From: Bacillota bacterium
GTDB taxonomy: Bacteria; Bacillota; JAAYKD01
Assembly (NCBI GenBank): GCA_012522585.1
Contig: JAAYKD010000069.1
Coordinates: forward strand, 1,602 to 65,601
Length of the DNA: 64,000 bases
Direction: 5' to 3'
The translations under genes and the position numbers were made by a program. Shown here one piece after another: positions 1 to 52,863 of the stretch (within the stretch, counting starts at the first letter, position 1; the number at the start of each line of letters is the position of its first letter). Under the pieces are notes generated by a model, which made no database searches, had not been told where the DNA came from, and was given only the letters and a program-made list of their open reading frames with translations.

Positions 1-689
1 TTCAGATGATAACGCCTCTTCTAGGCAAATATATCTATCCCGGATCCGAAGGCAAAGAGCTAGCAGTCTTACGCTATGGCACCGTCGTTTCCAATGCCGG
101 CTATTTGGGTAACCCCATGGCTCTGGCTCTTTATGGCAGTCAAGGTCTGCTCTATGCCTCTATATTTTTAATTCCTCAACGAATTGTTGTCTGGTCTCTG
201 GGGGTCTCCTATTTCACCGGCAATAGGGGCAAGAAGATGTTCAAGCAGATCCTCTTTCACCCCTGCATTTTAGCGGTCATTGTCGGCCTTGTTTTGATGC
301 TGGCCCAGATTAAACTCCCCAGTGCTTTGGTCAAGGTTCTGCAACATGGAAGCAATAGTGTCACCCCTATTTCCATGGTCTTGATCGGCAACCTTCTAGC
401 CGATATTTCCTTTAAATCCTTGATCAACAAAACTATCCTCTGGTATACAACTGTTCGCCTCATTTTGATTCCGGCAGCCGTCTTAGCAATTTGTTCTGCT
501 TTGAATTTACCCACCATGGTCACAGTCATCTCAACTCTATTGGTAGCCATGCCAGCCGGAGCGACAACTGCTATTTTAGCAGCCCAACATGATGGCGATG
601 ATGTGCTAGCAGCTAAAATAGTCTTCTTTACTACATTTTTATCCTTGATCACTGTGCCCATCTTCATCTTAATCATGAACAAACTTTAA
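1..689 (+). CDS. AEC (auxin efflux carrier/malate permease) family membrane transporter, C-terminal part (5' end lies upstream of window)
   Basis: Hydrophobic multi-TM translation (..GNPMALALYGSQGLLYASIFLIPQRIVVWSLG.., ..VAMPAGATTAILAAQHDGD..) typical of AEC permeases. The ORF runs to the window edge. Confidence 0.6.
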   Translation, partial: QMITPLLGKYIYPGSEGKELAVLRYGTVVSNAGYLGNPMALALYGSQGLLYASIFLIPQRIVVWSLGVSYFTGNRGKKMFKQILFHPCILAVIVGLVLMLAQIKLPSALVKVLQHGSNSVTPISMVLIGNLLADISFKSLINKTILWYTTVRLILIPAAVLAICSALNLPTMVTVISTLLVAMPAGATTAILAAQHDGDDVLAAKIVFFTTFLSLITVPIFILIMNKL

Positions 690-792
690 TCACGATGGCG
701 ACGATGTGCCAGCAGCTAAGATAGTCTTCTTTACTACCTTCTTATCCTTGATTACTATGCCCATCTTCATCTTAATCATGAACAAGCTTTAG
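588..792 (+). repeat. Two tandem copies (about 100 bp each, about 90% identical) of the 3'-terminal coding segment of the AEC transporter. Copy 2 (691-792) lies immediately after the stop codon and keeps its own stop.
   Basis: Direct comparison of 588-689 with 691-792 (cacgatggcgacgatgtgccagcagctaag...catcttaatcatgaacaagctttag). Confidence 0.85.
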
Positions 793-888
793 AATCAGGG
801 CTTGACAATAAAATGAATTTCGTTATAATGCAAGTGTAAACTTTACACCTAGGGTTTATAGATTAATTAAATACTGGTTGCATGATGA

Positions 889-1078
889 TTTCGAGAGAGT
901 GCGAAAGGCAATAGCTTTTCGACGCCGAAGGGGCCCGCGCGGGAAACTCTCAGGCAAAAGGATCGAAATCGGACGACCACTCCGGAAAGCCAGACTACCA
1001 GATGGATGTCTTGGCACCGAAGAAGCAATCCGCAGAGACCTTTAAACTAAAGGATCTTTTCGGGGAATCTTTCAGGTT
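889..1078 (+). promoter_or_regulatory. Glycine riboswitch. One well-conserved aptamer (about 890-975) plus a degenerate second aptamer (about 985-1075).
   Basis: Aptamer 1 contains GAGAG...GACGCCGAAGGGGC...GAAACTCTCAGGCAAAAGGA, matching the glycine-aptamer core. Aptamer 2 contains GGCACCGAAGAAGCAA...AAACTAAAGGATC. Confidence 0.6.
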
Positions 1079-1082
1079 ATAA

Positions 1083-1126
1083 GACGGAGGCGCACGAAAT
1101 ATCGTAGTGCCTCTGTCTTTTTTTAT
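1083..1126 (+). terminator. Intrinsic terminator serving as the riboswitch expression platform
   Basis: GACGGAGGCGCAC...GTGCCTCTGTC stem followed by TTTTTTT. Confidence 0.6.
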
Positions 1127-1164
1127 GAGCTTTAGCTACGAAATCAAGAAAGAGTGAAGAGAGT

Positions 1165-1302
1165 ATGGAGCACAAAACACCTTTATACGACTGCCATCTT
1201 ACAGCTGGAGCCAAAGCCACACCCTTTAGAGGCTATTTGCTCAAGGTTAAAATAGGAAAAGAAGACTTGATCGGTAACAAGGCACTTCCCCTAAAGAGCT
1301 GA
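1165..1302 (+). pseudogene. gcvT: Remnant of the 5' end of gcvT (aminomethyltransferase): 45 codons, then a stop
   Basis: The translation MEHKTPLYDCHLTAGAKATPFRGY.. matches the GcvT N-terminal motif (K/R-TPLYD-H...GAK...F-G), then diverges and terminates. It is preceded by a GA-rich RBS. Confidence 0.5.
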
Positions 1303-1422
1303 GCCGAAAGTTTTACAAGTTAGGCTAAAAGCGGCAGAGAGAGGCAGAGCTTAAGGATTTTGTGCTTTCTGAATCAAGCCAAAGGAAATAAAAGTTGATT
1401 ATAAAGAAAAGGAGCCAATAAT

Positions 1423-2820
1423 ATGCAAAATGAATTCGATCTTGCGGTAATTGGTGCAGGGCCTGGGGGCTATGTAGCTGCCATTAGAGGAGCTCAGTCA
1501 GGCATGAAGGTTGCACTCATTGAAGAAAGAGAAATTGGTGGCACTTGTTTAAACAGAGGATGCGTTCCCACCAAAGCGCTGATGCATTCCGCCAATCTTT
1601 ACCGCCAAATTAGCCGTAGCGATCTCTTCGGTATTGAAGCCACAGACCTAAAATACGATATGGAAAAAATCTATTCACGAAAAGACGAGGTTGTATCAAA
1701 GTTACGCAGTGGAGTTGAGTTTCTCATATCAGCTAATCAAATTGAAATCATCAGAAGCAGAGGCCTGGTTACAGACCAAAACACAATAAAAACAAAGGAC
1801 AGAGAGATTAAAGCTAAGAATATACTCATTGCCACCGGTTCCTCTCCTGCTCGACCTCCTATTCCGGGCTTGGATTTACCAGGGGTCATGACCAGCGATG
1901 AATTACTGAATCAGCAGCAAGGACCCGGCTGCCAAAGTCTCATCATCATCGGCGGAGGCGTTATAGGCATGGAATTCGCCGGAATATTTTCATCTTTCGG
2001 TTGCAAAGTCACCGTCATTGAGGCGATGGACCGTATTTTGTCAACCATGGATAGAGAAATCGCTCAAAATTTGAGTATGATCATGAGGAGGCGGGGTGTA
2101 ACTATAAATACGAGGGCAAGGGTAAACAAAATCGAGCAAACAGAAGAGGGCTTGATCTGCCATTATACCCAAAAAGAAACCTCTAAAGTTGCTGAAGCAC
2201 AAGCAGTGCTCGTGGCCATCGGGCGAAAACCAAATGTTGATGGATTATTCTCAGAAAACCTCAATATAAAGACTGAACGGGGAATCGTTGTTAACGAGCA
2301 TTTCCAAACCAACATCCCTGGTATCTATGCCATTGGAGATGTTATTTCTGATGGCATCCAGCTGGCTCATCTGGCTTCAGCACAAGGAATAACCGCTGTA
2401 TCTCATATGATAGGCAATCCTTCCCCCGTCGACCTCAACACAATACCCTCCTGCATCTACACTGAACCGGAAATTGCCTCTGTGGGTCTTTCTGCAGACC
2501 AAGCCAAGGCCCAAGGGCTTTCAATTAAAACAGGGAAATTCCCTATGTCGGGCAATGCAAAATCAATCATCGAAGATGAAGACCGAGGTTTTATCAAACT
2601 AGTCTTTGATAGTGAAACAGAGGTAATCCTCGGTGCACAAATGATGTGCGGCAGAGCTACCGATTTAATCAGCGAAATGTCAACAGCCATCGTCGCCAAG
2701 CTTACCTTGGCCGACCTAGGCTCCGTGATTCGACCTCATCCCACCTTTATCGAAGGGATCAGCGAAGCCTTAGATGGCACTCATGGCAAAGCCATTCATA
2801 TTGCACCTAGAAACCGCTAA
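1423..2820 (+). CDS. lpdA: Dihydrolipoyl dehydrogenase (E3/L-protein)
   Basis: FAD-binding GAGPGGYVAA, redox-disulfide CLNRGCVPTK, NAD site GGGVIGMEFAG, and a C-terminal dimerisation HPT motif. RBS AAGGAG upstream. Confidence 0.93.
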   Translation: MQNEFDLAVIGAGPGGYVAAIRGAQSGMKVALIEEREIGGTCLNRGCVPTKALMHSANLYRQISRSDLFGIEATDLKYDMEKIYSRKDEVVSKLRSGVEFLISANQIEIIRSRGLVTDQNTIKTKDREIKAKNILIATGSSPARPPIPGLDLPGVMTSDELLNQQQGPGCQSLIIIGGGVIGMEFAGIFSSFGCKVTVIEAMDRILSTMDREIAQNLSMIMRRRGVTINTRARVNKIEQTEEGLICHYTQKETSKVAEAQAVLVAIGRKPNVDGLFSENLNIKTERGIVVNEHFQTNIPGIYAIGDVISDGIQLAHLASAQGITAVSHMIGNPSPVDLNTIPSCIYTEPEIASVGLSADQAKAQGLSIKTGKFPMSGNAKSIIEDEDRGFIKLVFDSETEVILGAQMMCGRATDLISEMSTAIVAKLTLADLGSVIRPHPTFIEGISEALDGTHGKAIHIAPRNR

Positions 2821-2822
2821 AT

Positions 2823-2863
2823 TAAAAGCGCTATCTTCCAATCAAAGATAGCGCTTTTTTACT
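2823..2863 (+). terminator. Rho-independent terminator after lpdA
   Basis: AAAGCGCTATC..GATAGCGCTTTTTT hairpin plus a T-run. Confidence 0.75.
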
Positions 2864-2875
2864 TAGAAACTCTAA

Positions 2876-3005
2876 CAATTGTAATTTCTTACCTTAAATT
2901 TTCCCGACAAAAATTTTCTGTTTAATCCTCTTGGGCTGTTCTTGCAAGGATTTTCTCTTGATCATATTTATCCAAATTGACCCAATAATCGCTGAAAACT
3001 CTAAA
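2876..3005. repeat. Degenerate (about 70% identical) duplicate of the 3' end plus 3' flank of the glycyl-radical enzyme gene (authentic copy about 3006-3135)
   Basis: 2880-2996 aligns with 3010-3130 (..cccgacaaaaattttctgtttaatcctcttgggctgttcttgc..atttatccaaattgacccaataatcgctg.. against ..cccagccaaaaaatcgctgtttattcttcttgagcagttcgagc..atttatccaaattaacgaaataatcgctg..). Confidence 0.7.
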
Positions 3006-3046
3006 TTATCTTTTTCTCTTAATATTCCCAGCCAAAAAATCGCTGT

Positions 3047-5398
3047 TTATTCTTCTTGAGCAGTTCGAGCGATGATCTCCTCTTGATGGTATTTATCCAA
3101 ATTAACGAAATAATCGCTGTAACCGGCTACTCTGACTAAAAGATCTTTATATTCGGCTGGGTTCTGCTGGGCTTTTCTCAGTGTCTCAGTGTCCACCACA
3201 TTGAATTGGATGTGGTGACCGCCTAAACGAAAATAGGTTCTAATCAAGGCAGCCAATTTTTTCAAACCCTGCTCCCCTGCTAGAGTCGAAGGCATGAAGC
3301 GTTGATTGAGCAAGGTGCCTCCGGAGTAACTTTGATCCATTTTAGCCAAGGATTTAATCACTGCTGTGGGACCATTGCGATCAGCGCCGTGAGAAGGTGA
3401 AGTCCCATCTGATTCCGGCAGATGAGCCAAACGACCATTGGCGCTTGCTCCCAGCATTTTGCCAAAATAAACATGACAGGTTGTGGAGAGCATATTCAGA
3501 TGATAGGTGGGCCCTTTAGTGCTATGGCGCCCTTCAATATTATCTAAAAGGGATTGATAGACCCTTTGCATAATTTTATCGGCCCGATCATCATCGTTGC
3601 CATAGAAGGGTGTCTGATTGAGCAATTTTTGTCGCAGCGGCTCATGACCTTGGAAATTATCACTCAAGGCTTGTAGCAATTGCTCCAGCGGGACAGTCTT
3701 TTCATCATAGACATGGGTCTTGATAGCTGAAAGGCTGTCCGTCACCGTTCCTATACCGCAGCATTGAATATAGGTCGTATTATATTTAGGACCTCCGTCG
3801 TAGTAATCTTTGCCACTTTCAATACAGCCTTCGATGACCACGGAGAGGAAAGGAGCCGGAGCATATTTTCTGAACATATGTTCTAAATAGTTGTTGACTC
3901 TGATCTTGGTGTCGACGACGAAACTCAATTGCTTTTGGAAAGCTGCGTAGAGATCATCGAAACTTTCAAAATCTCGGCCCGTGCTCAAGCCGATTTTTTT
4001 ACCGCTCAAGGGGTCAACTCCATCGTTTAAAGTCAATTCCAAAACTTTAGGCACGTTGAGATAGCCGGTCAACAAATAGGCTTCCTTGCCGAAACAGCCT
4101 GTCTCGATACAGCCACTGTTTCCCCCTTCTCTGGCATCCTCAACGCTTTTGCCTGAGCGTACCTGTTCCATGATGACCATATCCGTATTGAAAACGGAAG
4201 GATAACCATAGCCCTTGCGGATAATGGCAGCTGCTTCTAGGAGGAATTTTTCCGGAGTTTTTGCGCTGATCTGAACATTACACTGAGGCTGCAATAAGTG
4301 AAGCTCATCGAAAACTTCCAACAAGAGATATGAGACTTCACTGACTCCATCACTGCCATCTCTTTGCAGGCCACCAATATTGATATTGACGAAATCATTA
4401 TAGGTTCCGCTTTCCAAGGCGGTCACACCGACTTTGGGTGGGGCCGGATGGTTGTTGAATTTTATCCATAAACAGCTCAAGAGCTCCTTAGCTTGATTTC
4501 TGGTCAAGGTGTTGGCAGCCAGTTCTCTAAAATAAAAGGGTGCTAAATGCTGATCTAAATGACCTGGGCTCATAGAATCCCAGCCGTTCAATTCCATGAT
4601 GGTGCCTAAATGGACAAACCAGTACATTTGAAGAGCATCATGAAAACTCTGGGGAGCTTGAGCCGGAATGCGGCGACAGCGCTCAGCTATATCCAACAAT
4701 TCGGCTTTACGCTCAGGGTTATCTTCCTCTTGGGCCAATGCTTGGGCTTTTTCAGCATGTCTTTGACCATAGCGAATCAGTGCCTGAGCGGAAATCATCA
4801 TAGCTTTATATTGCTCATTTTTATTGCCCGCTTCAGGGTCCTTGAGCCAGTCCAATTGGCTTTGCCGTTCTTTTATTTGCTCAATGAAATCGTCCATACC
4901 GTAAAGATAGATTCTACCGTCTAAGGCAGTATGTCCGGGAGCCCTTTGCTCCATAAATTCAGTGAACAAACCTGCTTCGTAGAGGTTCTTCCAAGTATCA
5001 TCGATTTCGGCAAAAGCTTTATCCCGCATACTGCGCCCCCGCCAATAAGGAATCACTTCTTTTTCATAGATCAGCTTATCCTCCGAACTGATCTTGTAGC
5101 CTGCCATCTCCCTCGTATCCAAAACATCTAGATCCTCTAGAGTATGACAAGTCAATTCCGGAAAAGAAGGGACGACTGCGGGAGCATTTCCTCTTTCCCC
5201 TACGATCAATTCCCCTTGACCGATATAGATTTCTTTCTGATCGCAGAAATGATAAAAATTCTTGGCTCGCATGACGGGAACCGAATATTTACCATCATTC
5301 TCTCGATAAAATTCTGTGACCAGCTTGGCCCTTTCCGCACTGAATTTTACAACAGCCTCTCGACTCTCTTGACGCAATCTGGCAACTCGTTCAGTCAT
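3047..5398 (-). CDS. Glycyl-radical enzyme of the PFL2/DhaB-like eliminase family (glycerol dehydratase / HypD / CutC-like). Substrate unassigned.
   Basis: C-terminal glycyl-radical motif RVAGYSDYF. Active-site thiyl-Cys/Glu motif GCIETG. WFVHLGTIMELNGWDSMSPG and FMEQRAPGH blocks resemble C. butyricum glycerol dehydratase. The likely true start is the second ATG (MTERV..), which has AGGAGG 7 nt upstream; the listed ORF begins 6 codons earlier. Confidence 0.85.
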   Translation of the reverse strand: MTERVARLRQESREAVVKFSAERAKLVTEFYRENDGKYSVPVMRAKNFYHFCDQKEIYIGQGELIVGERGNAPAVVPSFPELTCHTLEDLDVLDTREMAGYKISSEDKLIYEKEVIPYWRGRSMRDKAFAEIDDTWKNLYEAGLFTEFMEQRAPGHTALDGRIYLYGMDDFIEQIKERQSQLDWLKDPEAGNKNEQYKAMMISAQALIRYGQRHAEKAQALAQEEDNPERKAELLDIAERCRRIPAQAPQSFHDALQMYWFVHLGTIMELNGWDSMSPGHLDQHLAPFYFRELAANTLTRNQAKELLSCLWIKFNNHPAPPKVGVTALESGTYNDFVNINIGGLQRDGSDGVSEVSYLLLEVFDELHLLQPQCNVQISAKTPEKFLLEAAAIIRKGYGYPSVFNTDMVIMEQVRSGKSVEDAREGGNSGCIETGCFGKEAYLLTGYLNVPKVLELTLNDGVDPLSGKKIGLSTGRDFESFDDLYAAFQKQLSFVVDTKIRVNNYLEHMFRKYAPAPFLSVVIEGCIESGKDYYDGGPKYNTTYIQCCGIGTVTDSLSAIKTHVYDEKTVPLEQLLQALSDNFQGHEPLRQKLLNQTPFYGNDDDRADKIMQRVYQSLLDNIEGRHSTKGPTYHLNMLSTTCHVYFGKMLGASANGRLAHLPESDGTSPSHGADRNGPTAVIKSLAKMDQSYSGGTLLNQRFMPSTLAGEQGLKKLAALIRTYFRLGGHHIQFNVVDTETLRKAQQNPAEYKDLLVRVAGYSDYFVNLDKYHQEEIIARTAQEE

Positions 5399-5412
5399 TT
5401 TATTCCTCCTGA

Positions 5413-6291
5413 TCATTCTATGTTTCTTCGGGCTTCGAGACCACCGGCTCTTAAATAGTCTATGGCTCGGTCCATCTCAGATTCCGTTGGTGTTTCAATA
5501 TGGGGTAATTTATATTCTCGGTTCAATTTTTCATATTTGTTGATCTGCATATGGTGATAGGGCAATAGCTCCAGGGGCCAAGGATTTTCAAACTGCTTAA
5601 AAAAATCGATAATCCTATCGAGATTTTTTTTAGAATCGTTGATTCCCGGTATCAAAGGCATTCGAACAATACCGGCATAACCTGCTCTGATCAAATTGGC
5701 CAAGTTATTTAGAATCAGAGTGTTGTCAACACCTGTATACTTCTCATGTTCTCGGCCAGCCATATGTTTCAAATCGTAGAGAAATAGATCAATATGAGGA
5801 GCCAAGTCTGCTAAGATTGGCCAAGGGCTGTAGCCCGATGTATCCAAAGTTCGATGGATACCCTCCTGGCCTGACAATTTGAGCAACTCCAACAGAAATT
5901 CCGGTTGACTTAAAGGCTCACCACCGGAGAATGTAACTCCGCCACCTGATTCATCATAAAAGAGTCGATCCTTTAAAATGATCTCGTGAACTTCTTGAGC
6001 CCTTTTAGTTTCACCGACCCAAACCCGAGCTTGAGTCAAACAAGCATCAACACAAAGCCCGCAGAGCAAGCAATTTGCACTTTGCTCTAAGCCTTGGGGG
6101 CAAACTTCCAGACAGCGACGACAATCGATACACAGTTCTTCTTGCCAAAGAATCTCTTTAGAAAAACCTTGGCTTTCAGGATTGTGACACCACCAACAAT
6201 TCAAAGGACAGCCTTTGAAAAAAACCGTGGTGCGAATACCCGGACCGTCCTCGATACTGTAGCGCCTAATATTAAAAATGGTACCTTCCAT
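5413..6291 (-). CDS. Glycyl-radical enzyme activating enzyme (radical SAM, with two extra ferredoxin-like Cys clusters)
   Basis: CPLNCWWCHNPE (CX3CX2C) near the N-terminus. CIDCRRCLEVCP and CLLCGLCVDAC clusters. GGEP SAM motif. The stop overlaps the GRE start region. Confidence 0.9.
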   Translation of the reverse strand: MEGTIFNIRRYSIEDGPGIRTTVFFKGCPLNCWWCHNPESQGFSKEILWQEELCIDCRRCLEVCPQGLEQSANCLLCGLCVDACLTQARVWVGETKRAQEVHEIILKDRLFYDESGGGVTFSGGEPLSQPEFLLELLKLSGQEGIHRTLDTSGYSPWPILADLAPHIDLFLYDLKHMAGREHEKYTGVDNTLILNNLANLIRAGYAGIVRMPLIPGINDSKKNLDRIIDFFKQFENPWPLELLPYHHMQINKYEKLNREYKLPHIETPTESEMDRAIDYLRAGGLEARRNIE

Positions 6292-8233: not shown

Positions 8234-10750
8234 CTATTTTACTTTCATCAAGGCATTGAAGAAGGGTTTGTAAGTGCCGTCTGTCTGAGCTCTGTATTGA
8301 GCGTGATAGCCCAGAAGGACTACATCACCTTGACCATATTCAACATGCATAGCAGCTGCTTTTCCGGCAATTAATTCTTCACCGTAGAGCAAACCGCTTT
8401 GTAAAATTTCTCTTTCCGGATAGCTGGCTAAAACTGTGTAATTTTGAGCCTTAGCTGTATCGGTGATGATATAAGCAGGACTGCTGAAGTTCAAGGTTAA
8501 GCCTAACTCAGGCATACCCCAATTGATGGGATGATCTGCATGTTCGGTGCGTAAAGTGGCTCCCTGGGTGAAAAACTCATCCATGGATTTTCCTTCAACA
8601 ACATTAGTCAAGCCTAACTCTAAAGCTTCCACTGCCCAATCACAAGAACCTGCTTGAGCTACCAAACGTCCGCCAGCTTCAACAAATTCCTTTAAAGCTG
8701 CAACTCCTTCAGCCTTTAAACCGCTCATATAACCTTCAGGCACGGTTCCGATAAAGCGACGCATCCTGGAGAAAGCGGGATCTTTGGTGATATCGGTGAG
8801 CATGCCTTTGCGATCGGCAGGAATAAAGATAACATCGTATTTGTCGATTAAATTGCCCTTTTGAACTTCTTCATCCATGATGTTGACGTAAGGGAATTCA
8901 AATTGTTCTAAGACCAAACGAGTCCAACCTTCGTCCATAGAGCCGCCTAGATAGCGCTTATAAAGAGCCAGACGCTTTGCTTCGTAGGGAATAATTTCAG
9001 CTTCGGCTAAGGGGCCTTCGAAGGGTACTATATCAATACCCAGCTCTTGGCCGCCGGCTTTTAAGATTTCCTGACCTTGGGCTTCGGCAACAAAATCGCC
9101 GCAGCAACGGGTTCGCCAGACCTTAATACCTTGAGCTAAGAGACGATTGGCTAAACGGAAAGAAGCATTGAGATTTCCACCAAAGACATAGGCTTCATGC
9201 TGATTGGCTTCTTCAAAAATTGCCTGCATGGGGGGAACTTCGGTCAGAAGTTTTGTTTTGCCCTCAATTGGATCTTCAGCTTCTATGATGTAAACACCCA
9301 TATACTCGCCGTAAGTATCGGTGGTGGTATCATAGATATTAGAAGCATTATTGAAGCGACGGCTGAACCAGTTATCATTGAAGAATGTTCTGGCTAAGAG
9401 GGTGCGAATAGCTGCTCTCTTGGGCTGAGACGCGTAAATAACGATGGAACCTTCAGGGGCTGTTTCACAACCGCTTGAGACGCATTCTTCGGCAATATGC
9501 AACTCGAAGCCCTGTTGTTCTAAAACTTTAATCAATTTATAAGCCGTAACCGGATCGTTTTGCAGATCAGCAGGAATGATGAAGCCATAAGGCTTTTCCA
9601 TTTCGCCCAGTTCGGTCTGTCTTTGTGCCTTCTTAATGGCATTGCGCAGGATGATATCCTTGTTTCGAGCTGCACAATCTAAGAGTGCCCAAGAAGTAAT
9701 CTTTTGTTGCTCGACGATATCTCTCAAGGTCCACCAGCCACCGGGCCAAGGATGAACAAAATCAACCTGTTGTTGGTGTACCGGGAAAGTGCGATCATTA
9801 GCACCTTGCAATTGCTCCGGAGCAATGTAGATCGGGCTTGCCGTCTTGACATTGGCCGATTCAGTCAACATACCGGCAATATTATGGTGATTGGTAAACC
9901 AGTGGAAGCCCATATGGCCCCAAGCAGGGAATTGACCTCCGCTTAAGATGCCTCTTTTCCCTTCCTCTTCCAGGCGATAACCCATGTGAGCTCCATACAT
10001 GCGCAGCTCACTCCAGACTAATGGGTCCGGATTGGGATGAATGGGGTCACTATAGGGGGAAATGTAAAGGCGAGCACCATAAGAGCCGAAATGATGATGA
10101 TCTTGGAAAGCATGGGGATTCCATTTTTGGAACATGATTTCTCCCACATAGCGAGATTCGATCAAGTTCCAAGCAAAAGCATCGCGATTGTTGTCGTGAC
10201 CACAATACTTATGATAGAGCCAAGGCAAACCTGCTCCTTCATATTCTGTGCCCAAATATTTGTTATACCAGTCGGTGACCATGATTTGGCCATCCGGGTT
10301 AAAACAAGGAACTATGATGGAAATAGTTTCATCTAAAATTCTTAAACCCTCTTCACTCTCAGTAGTCAAGAGATCATAGACCAGCTCAGGCGCCATTTGG
10401 GTGCCTCCAACCTCGCTGGCGTGCAAGCTCATAGTCTGAACTACTATGGCTTTGCCTTCCTTAACCAGTTCATCTAAGCGTTCTTCTTCAATTCCACGAG
10501 GATCAGTAATCTGCTTGTTGATCAGCCTTAATTCTTCTAGCCTAGCTAAGTTTTCAGGGGAAGATATATAGGCTACTAAAAATGGATGTCCCTCAGTTGA
10601 AGGTCCCATATTTTCGAGGATCATGCGGTCGCTCTCTTTGGCTAAGAGCTCCAAATAGTCGACGATCTTTTCCCATCTGACCAGCTTACGATCCTCTCCC
10701 AGTTGGTGACCAAAATAACTAATTGGAGATGTGACTTTGACTTGACTCAT
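8234..10750 (-). CDS. Large M14-family metallocarboxypeptidase-like protein (about 838 aa)
   Basis: M14 signatures HASE (HxxE zinc site), NPDG, and D-NNRD-F resembling the NRNF motif. The ORF track begins at GTG. An ATG with AAAGGAG RBS (MSQVKV..) is the likelier start. Confidence 0.6.
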   Translation of the reverse strand: MSQVKVTSPISYFGHQLGEDRKLVRWEKIVDYLELLAKESDRMILENMGPSTEGHPFLVAYISSPENLARLEELRLINKQITDPRGIEEERLDELVKEGKAIVVQTMSLHASEVGGTQMAPELVYDLLTTESEEGLRILDETISIIVPCFNPDGQIMVTDWYNKYLGTEYEGAGLPWLYHKYCGHDNNRDAFAWNLIESRYVGEIMFQKWNPHAFQDHHHFGSYGARLYISPYSDPIHPNPDPLVWSELRMYGAHMGYRLEEEGKRGILSGGQFPAWGHMGFHWFTNHHNIAGMLTESANVKTASPIYIAPEQLQGANDRTFPVHQQQVDFVHPWPGGWWTLRDIVEQQKITSWALLDCAARNKDIILRNAIKKAQRQTELGEMEKPYGFIIPADLQNDPVTAYKLIKVLEQQGFELHIAEECVSSGCETAPEGSIVIYASQPKRAAIRTLLARTFFNDNWFSRRFNNASNIYDTTTDTYGEYMGVYIIEAEDPIEGKTKLLTEVPPMQAIFEEANQHEAYVFGGNLNASFRLANRLLAQGIKVWRTRCCGDFVAEAQGQEILKAGGQELGIDIVPFEGPLAEAEIIPYEAKRLALYKRYLGGSMDEGWTRLVLEQFEFPYVNIMDEEVQKGNLIDKYDVIFIPADRKGMLTDITKDPAFSRMRRFIGTVPEGYMSGLKAEGVAALKEFVEAGGRLVAQAGSCDWAVEALELGLTNVVEGKSMDEFFTQGATLRTEHADHPINWGMPELGLTLNFSSPAYIITDTAKAQNYTVLASYPEREILQSGLLYGEELIAGKAAAMHVEYGQGDVVLLGYHAQYRAQTDGTYKPFFNALMKVK

Positions 10751-11994: not shown

Positions 11995-12537
11995 ATGAAT
12001 ACTCAGAAGATGTTGCGTTTAAGCCTGGCTTTGAGTTTAGGCCTAAGCTTGCATGTGATTGAAAGGATGCTGCCTTTACCGGCTCTGCCTTTCCCCGGAG
12101 TCAAACTAGGCTTAGCCAATCTGATCAGTTTAGGTGCAATCTTTTGGTTTTCCTATAAGGAAAGCCTTACCTTGATTATTTTGCGCTGTGTCTTAGCTTC
12201 CTTTTTTGGAGGTGGTTTTTCCGCTTTTCTCTACTCGTTGAGCGGCGCCTTTTTCAGCTTCAATCTGATCTGGTTTCTTTCTCATCTCTCTCCTGCCAAT
12301 TTCAGCCTACCAATGATCAGCATGGTCGGGGCAATTGTCCATAATTTCAGCCAAATCATGGTCTCCATCTTTTTAATGGAAACCTTAGGGCTCTTGATCT
12401 ATCTGCCAATTCTGATCATAGCCGGTTCGATCAGCGGCTTAGCCATCGGCCTGACCGGTCTTATCTTAATTCGCAATTTACACAAGAGCGGACTCTTGCC
12501 CCAAATTGAAGAAAGATTACTACCCTTGTTAAGTTAA
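11995..12537 (+). CDS. Gx-transporter family membrane protein (former heptaprenyl diphosphate synthase component I, PF07456)
   Basis: 5-TM hydrophobic protein. N-terminus LSLALSLGLSLHVIERMLPLP.. is typical of the family. Frequently found adjacent to apbE. Confidence 0.6.
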   Translation: MNTQKMLRLSLALSLGLSLHVIERMLPLPALPFPGVKLGLANLISLGAIFWFSYKESLTLIILRCVLASFFGGGFSAFLYSLSGAFFSFNLIWFLSHLSPANFSLPMISMVGAIVHNFSQIMVSIFLMETLGLLIYLPILIIAGSISGLAIGLTGLILIRNLHKSGLLPQIEERLLPLLS

Positions 12538-12920
12538 TGCCAATTCTGATCATAGCCGGTTCGATCAGCGGCTTAGCCATCGGCCCGAGCAGTCTTATCC
12601 TAATTCGCAATTTACATAAGAGCGGACTCTTGCCCCAAATTGAAGAGAGATTACTACCCTTGTTAAGTTAATGCCAATTCTGATCATAGCCGGTTCGATC
12701 AGCGGTTTAGCCATCGGCCTGACCAGACTTATCTTAATTCGCAATTTACATACGAGCGGACTCTTACCCCAAATTGAAGAAAGATTACTACCCTTGTTAA
12801 GTTAATGCCAATTCTGATCATAGCCGGTTCGATCAGCGGTTTAGCCATCGGCCTGACCAGTCTTATCTTAATTCGCAATTTACATACGAGCGGACTCTTA
12901 CCCCAAATTGAAGAGAAAGT
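12405..12920 (+). repeat. Four tandem copies of a 134-bp unit (the last one truncated). Copy 1 is the last 44 codons plus stop of the Gx-transporter gene. Copies 2-4 lie downstream, each retaining the TAA.
   Basis: Unit gccaattctgatcatagccggttcgatcagcgg...cccttgttaagttaat begins at 12405, 12539, 12673 and 12807. A few substitutions distinguish the copies. Confidence 0.9.
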
Positions 12921-13000
12921 AAAACTAGTTTAAAATTAAAAAAAGCCTAAGGTCAAAGAACTCTCATTTTTCCTGAGAAGCTTCTGACCTTAGGCTCTTC

Positions 13001-13318
13001 TTATTTGAAATCGTAAAAGGCTGTTCTGTCTATGATGATGAAGGATACCTTGACTCTCTTATAACCTAAATTTTTCATGAAATCTGCGATGACCTGAGCT
13101 GCTTCATCCTGTTGCTCCTGAGGCCGATCGAACCAATGAACTTCAATCATCGGATAACTTTCAATCAAGCCTGATTCATCAAAATGGGTGGTCTGGGTCA
13201 ATTCAAGGGTGAAGACTCTTTTTTCACATTGAGCAACTTGAGATAATTTTTCAATCAGGGGCTGAGCTAAAGTTTGCAAATCACTGGGCTTAACTCCGCG
13301 AAAGACTAATGTTGGCAT
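13001..13318 (-). CDS. Small conserved hypothetical protein. It has an N-terminal Pro after Met and may belong to the tautomerase/DUF1904-like superfamily.
   Basis: ORF only (MPTLVFRGV...). No diagnostic motif beyond the N-terminal Pro. Confidence 0.35.
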   Translation of the reverse strand: MPTLVFRGVKPSDLQTLAQPLIEKLSQVAQCEKRVFTLELTQTTHFDESGLIESYPMIEVHWFDRPQEQQDEAAQVIADFMKNLGYKRVKVSFIIIDRTAFYDFK

Positions 13319-18483: not shown

Positions 18484-18855
18484 TCTCAATTTGTCAACAA
18501 AATTATTTGTTCTCCTGAGAGCTATCCGACTAACTATAAATGCTTTTCTTAAAAGCATCTAACCAGGAGCAAAATTATATGTTTATTTTTAAAACAGATT
18601 TTTGATAATCCTTAGATGCTAAATGAAATTTAAATTCTCAGACTCAACAATCTATTCTTCTAGAATCTTATCAGACTCACTATCAGTGCTTTCTAAATAC
18701 TTTAAACAAGAAAGGAAAACTACTGCTTCTATTTACTATGCAATTTCTCAATAGTTATTAAGTGTCAACTTAACTTCAGAATTCTCGGAGAGTAGGTTTG
18801 AATTTTTGAAACTGCACTCTCTCGGATAAACTTACGAACCAAATAGAGAAAACCT

Positions 18856-28195: not shown

Positions 28196-29734
28196 CTAGT
28201 ATTCAGGGCTTTGATCTTTCTTTTTGATAATGGTATCAATGCGTAAAATTGCTTCAGCTACCTCACCGGCAGCTTTTAAAGCGTGTAATTTTACTAAAGT
28301 CGGATCTAAAATACCCTGCAAACTCAAATCTTTAACTTCGCCGCTATCGCAATCAATTGTGAGATTTTCATTTTTCTCTTCAGATTGAGCAGCTAAAACT
28401 TCTTCGATCTTCTCTAAAGGATTATATCCAGCATTATGGATAATTTGAGCTAAGGGACGTTTTAAAGCTTCTACCACAATATCCAAACCATAGGCAGACA
28501 TGCCTTTGAGTTGGTCTCTCAAGGGAGCTATGTGCCGAGCTGTGGCGATTTCCACTGCTCCACCTCCGCTGACCACTCCACCTTTGACCGCAGCCTGCAC
28601 AGCTGAAGCTGCATCCCGAGCGATTCTTTCTCGCTCTCCGACCACGGCTGATGTGGAAGCACCTACCAGAATAGTAGCTGTCTTCTGCCCTTGTCCTCCC
28701 AAAATTCGGAGATAACCCAATTTTTTATCATGAATAACCGAATCCGCTTGGCCTAAAAGACCCTTTAACTCAGTCAACTCTCTTTTTAAAGCATTTCTTT
28801 TAATGGGTTTGGCTCCGCTATGTTCTGCTATTTGACGCAGACTGCGCCTCAAGACCCTGGTCACTACCATGATACCAGCATCTGTCAAAACCTCCTCAGC
28901 TAAAGGATGGAGATTTTTATCAGTTAAAATGAGGTCAACTTCCAATTGGAGAATTCTTTCCAGCATCTGCTTAAACTCATTCTGCAATTCCATATAGCGG
29001 GCAAAGCCACTTTCGGTTGTCAGGGCCTCATCGTCTATTTCCTCAGGCTCTAGTGCGTCATCGATTAAAAGTATGCGAGCCTTTTCCACTTTTTCCGGCA
29101 TATCCTTGTTTAAAGGCTCTTTCTCTAAGATGATGCCAGCAAACACCTCGTTTTCTGCACCCTCTTTGGCCAAAATCAATTGGGAGAGTTTAAAATCTTC
29201 TTCTTCCAATTTTTCTTTTCCAACCAAAAGTGCTGCTTGCACAGTCAGATCGGCAATGTCTTCATGTTCACGACCGGCTACCAGAGCTATTTGTTTTAAA
29301 ATCTTCTCATCTAAAGTGAGCATAGCTTGACTGGATTGAGTGATATAACTCCTAGCCTCTTGCAGGCCAAAGCGCATACCATCGATAATTCGAGCCACCG
29401 GAACGCCCCGGTAGACATGTTCAGCACCTGCTGAAATCAAGGCATTGGCCATAATGGTGGCTGTGGTCGTGCCGTCGCCAATCTCCTCCTGTTGGGCTTT
29501 AGCAACATTGATTAAAAGCTGAGCTGCCGGATGAGTCACATCCATTTTTTCTAAAATGGTCACGCCGGCGTTGGTGATCAAAACATCGCCGTAGCGATCA
29601 ACCAGCATGGTATCCAAGCCTTTGGGACCAATAGTCCCTTCTACAGCCGCTGCAACAGCTCTGATCGCCGCCGCATTGTTGGCCAAGGCTCCGCTTCTCT
29701 CATCCATTTCTCGATTGGGTGCACTATTTGCCAT
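28196..29734 (-). CDS. Group II (thermosome/CCT-type) chaperonin subunit, 512 aa, embedded in the hrcA operon
   Basis: TCP-1/thermosome signatures LGPKGLDTMLVD, GDGTTTA (rather than GroEL-type motifs), and an apical/equatorial domain layout. AAGGAG RBS. Only 14 bp separate it from the hrcA stop. Confidence 0.8.
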   Translation of the reverse strand: MANSAPNREMDERSGALANNAAAIRAVAAAVEGTIGPKGLDTMLVDRYGDVLITNAGVTILEKMDVTHPAAQLLINVAKAQQEEIGDGTTTATIMANALISAGAEHVYRGVPVARIIDGMRFGLQEARSYITQSSQAMLTLDEKILKQIALVAGREHEDIADLTVQAALLVGKEKLEEEDFKLSQLILAKEGAENEVFAGIILEKEPLNKDMPEKVEKARILLIDDALEPEEIDDEALTTESGFARYMELQNEFKQMLERILQLEVDLILTDKNLHPLAEEVLTDAGIMVVTRVLRRSLRQIAEHSGAKPIKRNALKRELTELKGLLGQADSVIHDKKLGYLRILGGQGQKTATILVGASTSAVVGERERIARDAASAVQAAVKGGVVSGGGAVEIATARHIAPLRDQLKGMSAYGLDIVVEALKRPLAQIIHNAGYNPLEKIEEVLAAQSEEKNENLTIDCDSGEVKDLSLQGILDPTLVKLHALKAAGEVAEAILRIDTIIKKKDQSPEY

Positions 29735-36340: not shown

Positions 36341-36765
36341 GGCAGGTTCACCAGGTCCAGTAACGGCCATTGCTTTGGCAGATGGTTCCCCTTTGAGCTG
36401 CCCTAGTCAAAACTAGGCTATGGTCAGCAGGTTCGCCAAGTCTAGTAACGGCCATTGCTTTGGCAGATGATTCCCCTTTGAGCTGCCCTAGTCAAAGCTA
36501 GGCTATGGTCAGCAAGTTCGCCAAGTCCAGTAGCGACCGTTGCTTTGGCAAATGATTCCCCTTTGAGCTGCCCCAGTCAAAGCTAGGCCATGGTCAACAG
36601 GTTCGCCAAGTCCAGTAACGGCCATTGCTTTGGCAGATGATACCTCCTTTGAGCTGCCCTAGTCAAAACTAGGCTACGGTAAACAGGTTCGCCAAGTCCA
36701 GTAACGGCCATTGCTTTGGCAGATGATACCTCCTTGGGCAGCCGTAGTCAAAACTATGCTATTGT
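36341..36765. repeat. About five tandem copies of an approximately 85-bp unit. The last copy supplies the final roughly 20 codons and stop of comEC.
   Basis: Unit ggtcagcaggttcgccaagtccagtaacggccattgctttggcagatgattcccctttgagctgccctagtcaaagctaggctat recurs at about 36343, 36428, 36513, 36598 and 36684 with point differences. Each unit contains the small hairpin CTAGTCAAAACTAG. Confidence 0.9.
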
Positions 36766-39022
36766 GCCTTTTTAAAATTTCCAATGTGGAATCGGCCGGA
36801 TGATTATATCGGTTGTTAACAGCGACGGAGATGATGGAGATCTCCGGTGTAATTTTACCGAGAAATTCAGGGCTGCAAGAACTGGCTCCCCCGTGATGGG
36901 AAACTTTAAAGAGGGTTTGGGCTTCTATAGCTCTGATTTTTGGCAAAAGGGCGAATTCCCCTTCCCTTTCCAGATCTCCAGCAAGCCACAAATCCGTTCC
37001 TTGATAGACTAGATGGATAACTAAAGAGTCATCATTGCCTCCATCTTTAAAAACCTGAGATTGCACTACTTCGATGCTAACATCCTTGTCTAAAACTATT
37101 TGATCCCCTTCAAACAAGAGGATCTTTTGGCTTTCCGGCTGTTGGCTCAGCCAATCGGTCAATTCTGCAGGTAAATTCGTTAAATCTGCCAGGCCGTGTA
37201 AAAACTTTTTGTAAGGAAGTTTATCTCCCACTTGAATTAAGCCTTGAAAATGGTCTGAGTGGCCATGACTCAATAACAGAACATCCAGACTATTCAATCC
37301 CAATCTTTTCAAATAGGGAAGCACCGTCTTCTTTCCAATTTCACTGCTGCCAGTACCCGAGCCTCCTCCATCCACTAGGATGGTTTTTCCATTGGGCAAA
37401 CGCAAAAAAATACAATCACCTTGGCCAACATCGATCATATGAACTTCCAATTTATAGGGCCAAGGATGCCAACAGAGCAGGGCTAAAATGAGAAGGAAAG
37501 ACAGAGCTGTTTTTTTAACCAGGCTTTTATACTTAGGTAAAATCCCTGAGCTCAGGAAAAACAAGAAGATATAGGCCAAGTAGACGACTGACAAGCTGGG
37601 TTTGGGTAAATATAATGAAGACATAGGCAAGGAAGCAAAGAGACTTCCCGTTTTGATCAACAGCCAAGCATAGGCTTCGGCCAATCCGTAGAGCCAAAAG
37701 AACAAAGAGCTAAAAGGGATGCTCAACCATAATAAAAGCAATAAAGGCATGGCGGGAATGATCAAAGGAGTAAAAACTAAATTGCTCAAAGGAGCGATTA
37801 AAGACACTTCCTGAAAATAATAGAGACTTAGTGGAAGGACACCGATTTGAGCTGCCAGAGTGGCAGCCATAGGAAAGATCAAAAAATCAGCTAACTTCAA
37901 TCGCTTTTTTAAAGCTGTGGAAATAGGTCTGGTGAAAACAAAAAGACCCCAGACTGCACATAAGGAAAGGAGAAAACCCGTTTCAAAGAGTAAATTAGGC
38001 CAAAGCGGCAGGAGAATCAAAAGCATCAAGGCTAATATTGTAGACCAATGGGTTCGCCTCAAGATTATTTTAGCTGAGAAAACGATGATGGCCATGATTC
38101 CGGCTCGAACAACCGAAGGTTCCAATTCTGTCAAGAGCATAAAAAACATTATTAAGGCCAGATAGAGAAAATATTCCGACTTTCTACTTAAAAGAAGTCT
38201 GTTTAAAAACAAGCCCAACCCCACAATGAAAAAAGCGACATTGCCCCCGGAGACTGCCAGAAGATGCAGAAGACCTGCCTTTTGAAAATTTTCAATTAAG
38301 TCTTCGGCCAAATCATCTGCCACCCCAAATGACAAGCTCATCAAAAGAGAAGCGGTCTCCTCTTGCAGCTTAGGGTTTCCATCTTGCCCCTTAGAGTAAA
38401 GAGCCATGTAGAGATTTCTTCTCAATTTCCAGATAGATGCTAGAGGGTCGGTCAAGGTTGGCCCTCCCAAGGTTTTTCCCTCCTGAGCAAAAAAGCGAGC
38501 CACAATATTCTTTCTTTTCTGAATTAAATCCCAATTGGGATCTCCGAAATTTACTCTGCCCCCCTGCAGTCCCAAGCTACCCTTAAGCCAGATAAAGGTG
38601 CCTGGAGGATATAGTTGATCTTCCTTGTTCTCCAGATAGACATCGACTTTACCACCCTGAGAGTGCCAAGAATTTTCCTTTAAAATAGAAAACTCCTCTA
38701 ACTGAAAGCGCCATCTGTTTTGATTGTCCTTAAAAGGAAAGCCGCTGACCCGTCCTTGAATTTCTATTGTTTGATCCGTAGGGATTGAATCCAACCTTTT
38801 CGCTTTTTTAAATTCATGGAGGGAATAAATGGAATAGCCTAAAATCATGAAAACTAAGAAAATTGCTACTGTCTTTCTATCTCTATAGAGAGCCAAGATA
38901 ATTAAGAGAAAAGATAGAACTATCAAAAAAGGCAAATAGGAGAAACCGTATCTTTGCTCTCCTAAAGCAATTCCCAAAGCCATAGCCGCAGCTGCGACTA
39001 TGGGCTTTTTAATTCTTTTCAT
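36674..39022 (-). CDS. comEC: DNA internalisation competence protein ComEC/Rec2 (with C-terminal metallo-beta-lactamase domain)
   Basis: Multi-TM competence domain. MBL motif HGHSDH. 782 aa. The C-terminal tail is encoded inside the tandem repeat. Confidence 0.92.
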   Translation of the reverse strand: MKRIKKPIVAAAAMALGIALGEQRYGFSYLPFLIVLSFLLIILALYRDRKTVAIFLVFMILGYSIYSLHEFKKAKRLDSIPTDQTIEIQGRVSGFPFKDNQNRWRFQLEEFSILKENSWHSQGGKVDVYLENKEDQLYPPGTFIWLKGSLGLQGGRVNFGDPNWDLIQKRKNIVARFFAQEGKTLGGPTLTDPLASIWKLRRNLYMALYSKGQDGNPKLQEETASLLMSLSFGVADDLAEDLIENFQKAGLLHLLAVSGGNVAFFIVGLGLFLNRLLLSRKSEYFLYLALIMFFMLLTELEPSVVRAGIMAIIVFSAKIILRRTHWSTILALMLLILLPLWPNLLFETGFLLSLCAVWGLFVFTRPISTALKKRLKLADFLIFPMAATLAAQIGVLPLSLYYFQEVSLIAPLSNLVFTPLIIPAMPLLLLLWLSIPFSSLFFWLYGLAEAYAWLLIKTGSLFASLPMSSLYLPKPSLSVVYLAYIFLFFLSSGILPKYKSLVKKTALSFLLILALLCWHPWPYKLEVHMIDVGQGDCIFLRLPNGKTILVDGGGSGTGSSEIGKKTVLPYLKRLGLNSLDVLLLSHGHSDHFQGLIQVGDKLPYKKFLHGLADLTNLPAELTDWLSQQPESQKILLFEGDQIVLDKDVSIEVVQSQVFKDGGNDDSLVIHLVYQGTDLWLAGDLEREGEFALLPKIRAIEAQTLFKVSHHGGASSCSPEFLGKITPEISIISVAVNNRYNHPADSTLEILKRHNSIVLTTAAQGGIICQSNGRYWTWRTCLP

Positions 39023-42270: not shown

Positions 42271-43149
42271 ATGGCAAAAATTGCATGGATTGGAACCGGC
42301 GTCATGGGAGCTTCCATGGCAGGTCATTTGAGCCAAGAAGGCCATGAACTTTTTTTATTCAACCGCACCCACACCAAAGCTGTTAAGGTAGCGGAACAAA
42401 TCAAAGCTAAGGCCTTTGACACAATAGCCGAAACTGTCAAGGATGCAGATTTCATCTTCACCATTGTCGGTTACCCTCATGATGTGGAAGAAGTGATGCT
42501 GAAACCTCAAGGTGTTTTCGATTCAGCCAAAAAAGGGTCCTTGATCATCGATATGACCACCTCATTGCCTTCCCTAGCGGTAAAACTCTACCAAATCGGT
42601 CAAGAAAGAGGTTTGAAACTCTTGGACGCACCTGTTTCAGGGGGCGATTCAGGAGCCCGCAACGGGACACTATCCATCATGGTAGGAGGAGATCAAGAAG
42701 ATTTCAAAACTGCCCTGCCTCTTTTTGAAGCGATGGGCCAAAACATAGTTCACATGGGAGTGGCTGGCAATGGTCAACATACTAAAGCCGCCAACCAAAT
42801 TGCCGTCGCCGGAGCAACTGCTGCCATGACAGAAGCAATCGTTTACTCTAAAAAAGTTGGTTTGGAGCCGGAAGCTATGCTCAAGGCTATTGGAGCCGGA
42901 GCGGCAGGCAGCTGGCAATTACAGAATATGGCTCCCAGAGTCCTGCAAAAGGATTTTGACCCTGGCTTTTTCGTCAAACACTTCATCAAGGATATGAAAA
43001 TTGTCAATGAGGAAATGGAAGAGCGAGATACTCATTTAGAAATGCTCAATACTGTTTTGAATCTCTATCTGAAGATGGCTGAAGCCGGTTTCGAAGACGA
43101 CGGTACTCAAGCCTTGATTAAGCTCTACGAAGAACAATCGAGCTGCTAA
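42271..43149 (+). CDS. 3-hydroxyisobutyrate dehydrogenase / 2-hydroxy-3-oxopropionate reductase family NAD(P)-dependent oxidoreductase
   Basis: Rossmann motif WIGTGVMGASMAGHL. HIBADH-family catalytic Lys region. Confidence 0.8.
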   Translation: MAKIAWIGTGVMGASMAGHLSQEGHELFLFNRTHTKAVKVAEQIKAKAFDTIAETVKDADFIFTIVGYPHDVEEVMLKPQGVFDSAKKGSLIIDMTTSLPSLAVKLYQIGQERGLKLLDAPVSGGDSGARNGTLSIMVGGDQEDFKTALPLFEAMGQNIVHMGVAGNGQHTKAANQIAVAGATAAMTEAIVYSKKVGLEPEAMLKAIGAGAAGSWQLQNMAPRVLQKDFDPGFFVKHFIKDMKIVNEEMEERDTHLEMLNTVLNLYLKMAEAGFEDDGTQALIKLYEEQSSC

Positions 43150-43303
43150 ACTTAAAGATAAACCTGTGTGTTAGCAATTACTCTTTGTTGATGCTCTAGG
43201 AAGAACAGTCGAAACTGCTAAACATATAGTTAAATCTTTATATGTAGGCAATCATACCCTTTGTTGATCTTCAACAGAAATCAGTAAATTAACTTTCAAA
43301 CCT

Positions 43304-52600: not shown

Positions 52601-52640
52601 CAAAGCATCTTTAGAAATCCTTCTCGAAGAATTGAAATAA
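49608..52640 (+). CDS. pntB: NAD(P) transhydrogenase subunit beta carrying four tandem dIII (NADP(H)-binding) domains (1010 aa)
   Basis: Residues 1 to about 290 form the multi-TM dII domain. They are followed by four repeats of about 180 aa, each with PGYGMALAQAQ, AIHPVAGRMPGHMNVLLAE, GANDVVNPAANTAEDTPIYGMP and NPLYEM. Confidence 0.9.
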   Translation: MEPIYIIISIVLAALVLLGIKLMSSPKTAVQGNLISAFSMLAAVILVLWTNNILSLPLLWAAIAIGSIIGYVLGMKVTMIQMPQVVALLNGLGGGASLLVAAAEILSNFNQMDAFSKVSGQLALIVGGITLSGSMIAAAKLDRRMSQRPVVLKGHNILANGSLVIMIVATFLTLLDNSPYIFLSFLILILSLAYGYLFSVRVGGADMPITISLLNSFSGLAGAIVGFTIGEPLLVAVGAIVGASGLILTQIMCKAMNRSLGSVLSGGTSKPSSKPKVVPAKVEEPVLTEPIKEEVAKSLGDLLKEAQRVIIIPGYGMALAQAQNEVKALTDALIAQGKQVEFAIHPVAGRMPGHMNVLLAEVDVPYELMREMDDINPLFAETDVAIVVGSCDVVNPAANTAEDTPIYGMPVLSVENAKHVIVCNLDTNPGYSGVDNPLYEMEHVRLLLGDAKATLKQLLAEFKEEKKSEPQEIEEEKTPSSPSYLELLHQGEKVIFVPGYGMALAQAQSLVKQLADALEEKGKEVKFAIHPVAGRMPGHMNVLLAETDVPYDKLWEMDDINPLFPETDIVIIVGANDVVNPAANTAEDTPIYGMPVLSVENAKHVIVCNLDKSPGYSGVDNPLYEMDNVTLLLGDAKESLTQLIDQFKQGPIAKEPEPLAQGTDTLTTVLAKPERVIIVPGYGMALAQAQTQVKEIYETLEAKGTEVEFAIHPVAGRMPGHMNVLLAEVDIPYEKLREMDDINPLFPETDLVIIVGANDVVNPAANTAEDTPIYGMPILNVDQAKHIVVCNLDQSPGYSGVDNPLYEMDNVTLLLGDAKDSLNKILDIFKAEPSAAPEAEPTSVAQTSVLAAAKKVIIVPGYGMALAQAQTLVKSVYDALEAKGAEVEFAIHPVAGRMHGHMNVLLAEVDVPYEKLREMDDINPLFPETDVVIVVGANDVVNPAANTAEDTPIYGMPILNVDQAKHIIVCNLDRSPGYSGVDNPLYDMENVTLLLGDAKASLEILLEELK
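50526..52640 (+). repeat. Intragenic tandem repeat: four units of about 540-560 bp (starts about 50526, 51084, 51630, 52170), each encoding one dIII domain
   Basis: Self-alignment of the pntB sequence. Copies differ mainly at third-codon positions. Confidence 0.9.
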
Positions 52641-52755: not shown

Positions 52756-52863
52756 ATAAAAAAGTAATCATCGTACCAGGATACAACATGGCTTTAACAT
52801 AAGTTCAAATATTGATCAAAGAAGCTTCTAACCTGGAAGCTGAACAAGCTAATAAAATCTAAG
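52756..52863 (+). pseudogene. Decayed remnant of the start of a fifth dIII repeat (..KVIIVPGYNMALT*..), downstream of the pntB terminator
   Basis: aaaaagtaatcatcgtaccaggatacaacatggctttaac... aligns to repeat-unit starts (aaaaaggtcatcatcgtaccaggctatggcatggctttagc...) with many substitutions and a stop. Confidence 0.7.

Follow-up and report, generated by a model that had tools for sequence, protein, structure and literature searches.

The end of a Gx-transporter family gene is repeated in tandem in the window, as the whole 64,000-nt stretch of DNA analysed here is called, and the array is read, with a probability of about 0.75, as a strain-specific amplification of the minisatellite or VNTR type that multiplied the last 134 bp of the gene (44 codons and the stop). 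The tandem structure is secure, and the exact copy number of 3.8 is well supported on the basis of short-read assemblies. By itself the array is probably an ordinary copy-number polymorphism with no function. As a routine structural polymorphism it provides a strain marker and a warning of breaks and miscounts in short-read assembly; the surrounding pattern matters more, namely the density, 3' bias and allele-like divergence of gene-tail duplications in this lineage.

The repeat array and its source gene

Tandem Repeats Finder places the array at 12404-12914 with a period of 134, 3.8 copies, 96% matches, 0% indels and a score of 931, in agreement with the first-pass annotation, which had described four tandem 134-bp copies of the 3' end of the Gx-transporter gene. 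A separate repeat search returned the same register (starts at 12404, 12538 and 12672, spacing 134), and self-alignment of 377 nt of the array against its own shifted copy gave 96% identity with E = 1.6e-175, far beyond chance. The starts proposed earlier (12405, 12539, 12673 and 12807) each fall one base to the right of this register, an immaterial shift for an array that is indeed present. It lies between the intact Gx-transporter gene and its terminator, with units that abut and no DNA between the copies; the earlier view that this is not a CRISPR array stands, as the units adjoin without spacers.

The 180-aa product is named 'Gx transporter family protein' at NCBI, in a Bacillota MAG (NLN83381.1); its gene is preceded by ApbE and followed, on the opposite strand, by DUF1904, a CoaD-like gene, Band 7 and NfeD. 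Homologues sharing 63-75% identity have ...P.I..(R/K)L.PLL(D/N) and a further 2-5 residues at their ends, and because these ends are conserved, the tail of unit 1, ...PQIEERLLPLLS and stop, is the real C-terminus; its ...RLLPLLS fits the conserved pattern, which bears out the original assignment of the first unit as the authentic end. The last unit ends in ...EEKVKLV and stop and is not the real C-terminus. Copy 1 retains the full conserved protein, and the array is tolerated because this copy leaves the gene intact.

The ancestral state is seen in single-copy strains. In a contig from another sample (L001), with flanks 97.4-98.3% identical to the window, the unit is present once and reads ...gaagagagattactacccttgttaagttaa directly followed by tttaaaatcaaaaagagcctaagg..., and a third strain (L011) has the same arrangement, its one copy abutting the flank tttaaaat. 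As both edges are set by this single-copy state, the unit is exactly 12404-12537, ending at the TAA. The terminator hairpin in the single-copy strains stands about 10 nt past the Gx stop codon, and the microhomology between unit start and flank amounts to at most 1 nt (t). The array is likewise absent from a syntenic relative (L012) whose Gx protein is 65% identical. No relative turned up in a GTDB genome scan that used the Gx protein, and the closest match in a GTDB scan with LepA has 69% identity, so the species and family are not represented there.

At the far end of the array, the match of the fourth unit to the ancestral unit stops at 12916 and the normal downstream flank returns at 12929. 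The last copy had been described as truncated; it is shortened, but not by mere truncation, since its final 23 nt have been swapped for 12 unrelated nt. This 12-nt filler is probably the original illegitimate junction. It has no second exact copy in the window, and a 2-mismatch match at 18709 that was considered as its source was taken as chance. The downstream copies keep their open frames and TAA stops, as was also claimed before and is seen in the ORF list: the small ORFs at 12537..12671 (44 aa), 12671..12805 (44 aa) and 12805..12933 (42 aa) are all intact, and stop and start overlap by one base as TAATG at 12535-12539, 12669-12673 and 12803-12807, the join between units reading gtTAATGcc.

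Table 1. Positions of the Gx array, its neighbours and the other gene-tail duplications in the window.
Feature	Position	Strand	Remarks
Gx-transporter family gene	11995..12537	+	180 aa, PF07456, intact; last 134 nt are unit 1
Repeat unit 1	12404..12537	+	134 nt; functional gene end, last base is that of the TAA stop; edges set by L001 and L011
Repeat unit 2	12538..12671	+	Non-functional copy; 44-codon ORF 12537..12671 via TAATG overlap
Repeat unit 3	12672..12805	+	GGT/TTA haplotype, as in single-copy strain L001
Repeat unit 4	12806..12916	+	111 of 134 nt; 1 position different from unit 3
Filler aagtaaaactag	12917..12928	+	12 nt replacing last 23 nt of unit; from comparison with L001
Terminator hairpin, two-sided	12934..13006	.	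Inverted repeat, 33-nt arms; also serves convergent DUF1904; conserved in L001
DUF1904 gene	13001..13318	-	Convergent to Gx gene
AEC-family transporter tail array	591-791	+	103 bp x 2.0, 91% identical; gene ORF 6..689
PFL-like glycyl-radical enzyme tail copy	2886-2997 vs 3011-3122	-	76% identity, period 125 bp; gene 3047..5416
ComEC tail array	36342-36762	-	85 bp x 4.9; gene 36674..39022
NAD-binding dehydrogenase tail duplication	43114-43192 vs 43185-43268	+	71-bp period, 76% identity; gene 42271..43149
PntB gene	49608-52640		1010 aa: complete beta subunit and three extra in-frame C-terminal domain copies

Between units, identity is 94-99% and pairwise differences number 1 to 8 nt; point differences had been noted before, in a range (3-6 per copy) that proved too narrow. 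Unit 2 has L15P, T16S and a silent TTA>CTA (Leu) to itself, unit 3 has S17R, and the downstream units share K26T and a silent His change. These downstream-private changes, four non-synonymous (L15P, T16S, S17R, K26T) against two synonymous, are close to the expectation without selection, and the extra copies are probably neutral, on a count of about ten substitutions. Two silent polymorphisms divide the array into units 1-2, with GGC...TTG as in L011, and units 3-4, with GGT...TTA as in L001. Within the unit the two single-copy strains can be told apart at only three sites, two of which match array variants in both position and base, a coincidence for which the chance is roughly estimated at about 0.01. 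The shared silent variants therefore indicate that the array exchanged sequence with, or was assembled from, alleles of other strains.

Assembly support and proposed history

Two contigs from separately assembled digester samples carry the identical 3.8-copy array, with 1 mismatch against the window in 9,740 nt (L002) and 3 mismatches in 7,496 nt (L003), and assemblies of the same strain thus agree exactly on it. A JGI contig from an independent dataset (L004) contains unit 1, the junction of units 1 and 2 and 63 nt of unit 2 with SNPs specific to that unit, and then ends; a contig end inside an array is as expected at repeats. JGI metagenome scans with the exact junction or the Gx protein gave no match, although the same scans also miss L004, which has the junction. 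The whole-array assemblies are all short-read (MEGAHIT k127 for L002 and L003), and two of them come from one project.

It is improbable that the array is an assembly artefact in which a de Bruijn assembler turned strain variants of a locus with one or two copies into four tandem copies. The period of 134 is admittedly near the assembler k of 127, the copies hold allelic variants found in single-copy strains, one contig breaks within the array, and the length of the ComEC array is not equal between the window and a same-project contig. Single-copy genomes, however, cannot give rise to the junction in which ...gttaa is joined to tgccaatt..., and this junction occurs in three datasets including the JGI one. 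The path through a k=127 graph is moreover unique, because distinguishing SNPs flank each inter-unit junction less than 127 nt apart and so link every junction; the identical array was recovered from two separately assembled samples, and the 76% identity of the window's older duplications is too low for products of assembly. Heterogeneity in array length had been put forward as a sign of mis-assembly. Heterogeneity does exist, with 3.8 copies in the window, L002 and L003 and one copy in L001 and L011; it separates strains about 2% different in their flanks and does not point to mis-assembly.

The most economical history for the strain-specific amplification would be an insertion followed by an expansion. 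An illegitimate event with 0-1 nt of microhomology would have put a 111-nt copy of the gene end and the 12-nt filler right after the TAA, giving a-b-a-x-flank, and unequal homologous recombination in the 134-bp register would then have expanded this to (a-b)x3-a-x; recombination with other strains may subsequently have introduced the two allelic haplotypes. In-register change at this locus would fit the a-b-a-b-a-b-a-x layout and the two haplotypes, and the two-step history explains why the copy number of 3.8 is not an integer with no need for an additional truncation. The other order, a clean four-copy array followed by a later 23-to-12-nt replacement, fits equally well. The array is likely to have no other effects than to lengthen the 3' untranslated region by about 390 nt, perhaps to allow some low-level reinitiation on the 44-codon ORFs, and to create a hotspot where recombination takes place and assemblies break.

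Possible functions and comparison with known repeat systems

That the extra copies are functional is very improbable. Under such a reading, termination-reinitiation at TAATG would yield 44-aa single-helix peptides that modulate the transporter, or the copies would act as a regulatory 3' untranslated region. It draws on the three consecutive intact ORFs, each with an ATG overlapping the preceding stop by 1 nt, and on the complete lack of indels across all copies; overlaps of -1 and -4 nt reportedly support translational coupling (PMC10666635). The ATG, however, is a by-product of the duplication junction, there is no Shine-Dalgarno sequence upstream, the C-terminal segment of unit 2 has a Leu-to-Pro change, and the tail of unit 4 is scrambled. 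The extra copies are also absent from close relatives, and the sister copies at ComEC are frameshifted and contain stops. Folding of the unit does not rise above that of shuffled sequence (z = +1.1 as RNA, -1.5 as DNA), giving no signal of structure, and Rfam has no match in the array region, its only matches in the window being a tRNA and a tandem glycine riboswitch.

A programmed repeat system within the window, whether a CRISPR-like array, the template and variable repeats of a diversity-generating retroelement (DGR) or att duplications of an integrative element that targets 3' ends, is effectively refuted. The unit lengths (85-134 bp) and the position at ORF 3' ends do recall DGR variable repeats, in which a repeat of about 100-140 bp likewise has one copy forming the very 3' end of an ORF, and integrative elements often target gene 3' ends, bringing a replacement end with them. 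Here, though, no cas, reverse transcriptase, integrase or transposase gene was found among the window ORFs examined (64 kb), and plasmid and phage databases showed no similarity. The differences between units include C/T, T/C, C/G, G/A, T/A and A/C, mostly transitions of all kinds and not confined to adenines, which departs from the adenine specificity of a DGR, as do the lack of a reverse transcriptase and the abutting copies in place of the usual spacer and accessory genes. A CRISPR array would differ in its spacers, and no cas-like gene is present among the Gx neighbours or the other ORFs examined in the window; att sites of an integrative element would differ in having DNA between the copies and an integrase, neither of which the window holds.

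The closest known kind is the bacterial minisatellite or VNTR, of which MIRU is an example. According to PMC3184786 and PMC3635867, MIRU (Supply et al. 1997) are units of 40-130 bp, arranged head to tail between genes and transcribed together with the gene before them; close strains differ in copy number, small ORFs overlap neighbouring coding sequences, and the units form one dispersed family of about 40-50 loci that may be MITE-like insertions. The likeness extends to unit size, intergenic co-transcribed position, variable copy number, overlapping small ORFs and, probably, in-register expansion and contraction. Unlike MIRU, each array here is built from the 3' end of the local gene, with no sequence common between arrays; self-BLAST found the Gx unit nowhere else in the 64-kb window, and the other arrays are unrelated to it in sequence.

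Orphan C-terminal modules of rhs and cdiA are displaced 3' ends downstream of an intact gene, thought to have been displaced by incoming ends (PMC3150448). They resemble the present arrays as displaced gene ends, and the synonymous-rich divergence of the AEC and PFL duplications described below fits that logic; in contrast to those modules, which are kb-scale, highly divergent toxin domains with immunity genes (PMC3150448), the units here are 71-134 bp, nearly identical, derived from housekeeping genes and without a partner gene. No gene, for immunity or otherwise, follows any copy of the Gx array. The proposed founding event has a further parallel in flap-processing defects and topoisomerase action. 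Yeast rad27 mutants, E. coli polA 5'-nuclease mutants and gyrase-mediated illegitimate recombination give rise to short duplications in tandem whose junctions show hardly any homology or none. These share with the present arrays a size of tens to about 100 bp and a junction microhomology of 0-3 nt, as inferred here for Gx, ComEC and AEC; they differ in being laboratory mutator phenotypes and do not alone account for a bias toward 3' ends.

Gene-tail duplications across the window

About one window gene in ten has a tail duplication. Besides the Gx array, four stop-spanning duplications with periods of 71-125 bp are present, two of them, AEC and ComEC, being the remaining long arrays reported by Tandem Repeats Finder and two, PFL-like and dehydrogenase, detected by sensitive self-comparison of the window; the two that were checked (ComEC and AEC) are both strain-variable. 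ComEC has 4.9 copies in the window, 3.9 in a 99.5% identical contig (L005) and one in a 98% identical contig (L006). In L005 the third unit is hybrid between units 3 and 4 of the window, which is a direct case of in-register change. Four variants of the L006 allele lie in the 3' half of unit 3 of the ComEC array. The ComEC unit ends 1 base before the ancestral TGA, and its junction recreates Pro-stop (cc[a/g] tag), so that the protein stays at 782 aa. A separate 21-bp x 2 repeat (80% match) within ComEC at 38354-38394 also occurs in L005 and L006 and is therefore fixed in these strains.

The AEC array has 3.0 copies in a 97% identical strain (L010) as against two in the window, and seven of the nine differences between its units are synonymous, TAA>TAG included (simulation P = 0.0075). 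The PFL-like copy takes in the last approximately 72 nt of the gene and 50 nt downstream, beginning just past the glycyl-radical motif (RVAGY); frame and stop are kept, and 9 of 15 differences are synonymous (P = 0.0004). Such synonymous-rich divergence is not expected of a copy decaying freely in situ. It suggests that the AEC and PFL copies diverged mostly as working alleles before they were placed side by side, and one copy of each may have been put in place, or exchanged, through recombination with diverged DNA; the older copies look like displaced functional alleles rather than decayed in-situ copies. Recombination with diverged DNA would also fit the shared polymorphisms at Gx and ComEC and the presence of ComEA and ComEC. 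The dehydrogenase duplication spans the stop codon and lies just upstream of the gene's terminator. In PntB the C-terminal repeats have a 555-bp period and 72-75% nucleotide identity, and a fragment of a further copy (52757-52809, 79% identity) lies past the first terminator and before the second. The window has no duplication at a gene 5' end, and the 6.2 kb to its left contain no further arrays.

Five stop-spanning local duplications in 64 kb compare with about 0.4 expected from a control rate (Poisson P about 6e-5). The control consisted of 80 unrelated lepA-centred loci taken from the LepA search, 940 kb in all, put through the same scan; local direct repeats were found in 15 of the 80, most of them intragenic, and at most six repeats were not inside a gene. 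The excess in the window is at least 12-fold over these loci. One control locus, a Thermobacillus MAG (L014), has a 115-bp tandem duplication of 87% identity at 9210-9445 that apparently spans the end of ORF 8708..9277, from which it follows that such events occur sporadically in other Bacillota.

The local density of five in 64 kb suggests a process more systematic than sporadic slippage. A lineage-specific systematic process of which the Gx array is one product is a rather unlikely minority reading, and it overlaps with the strain-specific amplification favoured here and is not opposed to it. Candidates are the additive integration of transformed diverged DNA, anchored by homology inside the gene and joined illegitimately immediately beyond the stop, which would stack incoming allelic 3' ends ahead of the resident one; illegitimate recombination at gene ends through topoisomerase or replication-transcription conflict; and an unknown element making long staggered cuts. 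The five stop-spanning duplications and the in-frame PntB domain repeats, none of them at 5' ends, argue for such a process, as do the scarcity of non-intragenic duplications in the control, the right-hand boundaries of the three younger arrays at -1, 0 and about +4 nt from the stop, the mostly synonymous differences of the older pairs, the alleles of other strains held in the array copies and the ComEA/ComEC uptake machinery that the organism encodes. It is weakened by the fact that selection alone favours stop-spanning duplications because the gene stays whole, and selection may by itself explain much of the 3' bias. The intergenic spacers, at just about 60-70 nt, leave few places for a boundary, and two of the five boundaries fall 43-50 nt past the stop; all copies of an array have the same boundaries, which argues for one founding event and expansion rather than repeated integrations. 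The evidence for a systematic process comes from about 70 kb of genome (the window and its left extension), and the DNA examined held no candidate enzyme.

The more specific proposal, that the lineage has a process not yet described by which the final 70-560 bp of genes are repeatedly duplicated or stacked at stop codons, for example through uptake from diverged strains, is a shade more doubtful still. If it were true, the arrays would preserve earlier alleles like fossils, and the process would offer a route to the amplification of C-terminal domains, of which the four-domain PntB would be an example. Should the pattern extend genome-wide, it would mean that the gene ends of an uncultured anaerobe are unusually active sites of small-scale duplication or additive recombination, and it would offer a natural system for the birth of C-terminal extensions and domain repeats. 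Searches of the literature turned up no relevant account of tandem duplication that systematically affects gene 3' ends in bacteria. Among narrower mechanisms, one specific to the stop codon is weakened by the two duplications that end well past it, and slippage at terminator hairpins misfits ComEC, which has no strong terminator before holA. An orientation effect was rejected, as genes of both strands carry arrays although the plus strand has negative GC skew throughout, which points to one direction of replication for the entire window.

Two further features of the window were observed alongside the duplications. A 2.25-kb segment (792-3046) is replaced in L010 by a 60-nt terminator (1435-1494 of that contig), the breakpoints lying 5 nt past the AEC stop at one end and precisely on the PFL stop at the other. 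It contains a promoter, a tandem glycine riboswitch, a dihydrolipoyl dehydrogenase gene, a terminator and a PFL-end remnant; the riboswitch, at 882-1097 with aptamers scoring 58.9 and 40.5 bits, lies upstream of the dehydrogenase gene, which stands alone at 1423..2820. At 28196-29734 on the minus strand, a Cpn60/TCP-1 family chaperonin (PF00118, 511 aa) is encoded within a run of same-strand ORFs that, by ORF sizes and order, is provisionally an hrcA-grpE-dnaK-dnaJ heat-shock cluster, a placement presumably resembling that of the archaeal-like 'group III' chaperonins of some Firmicutes.
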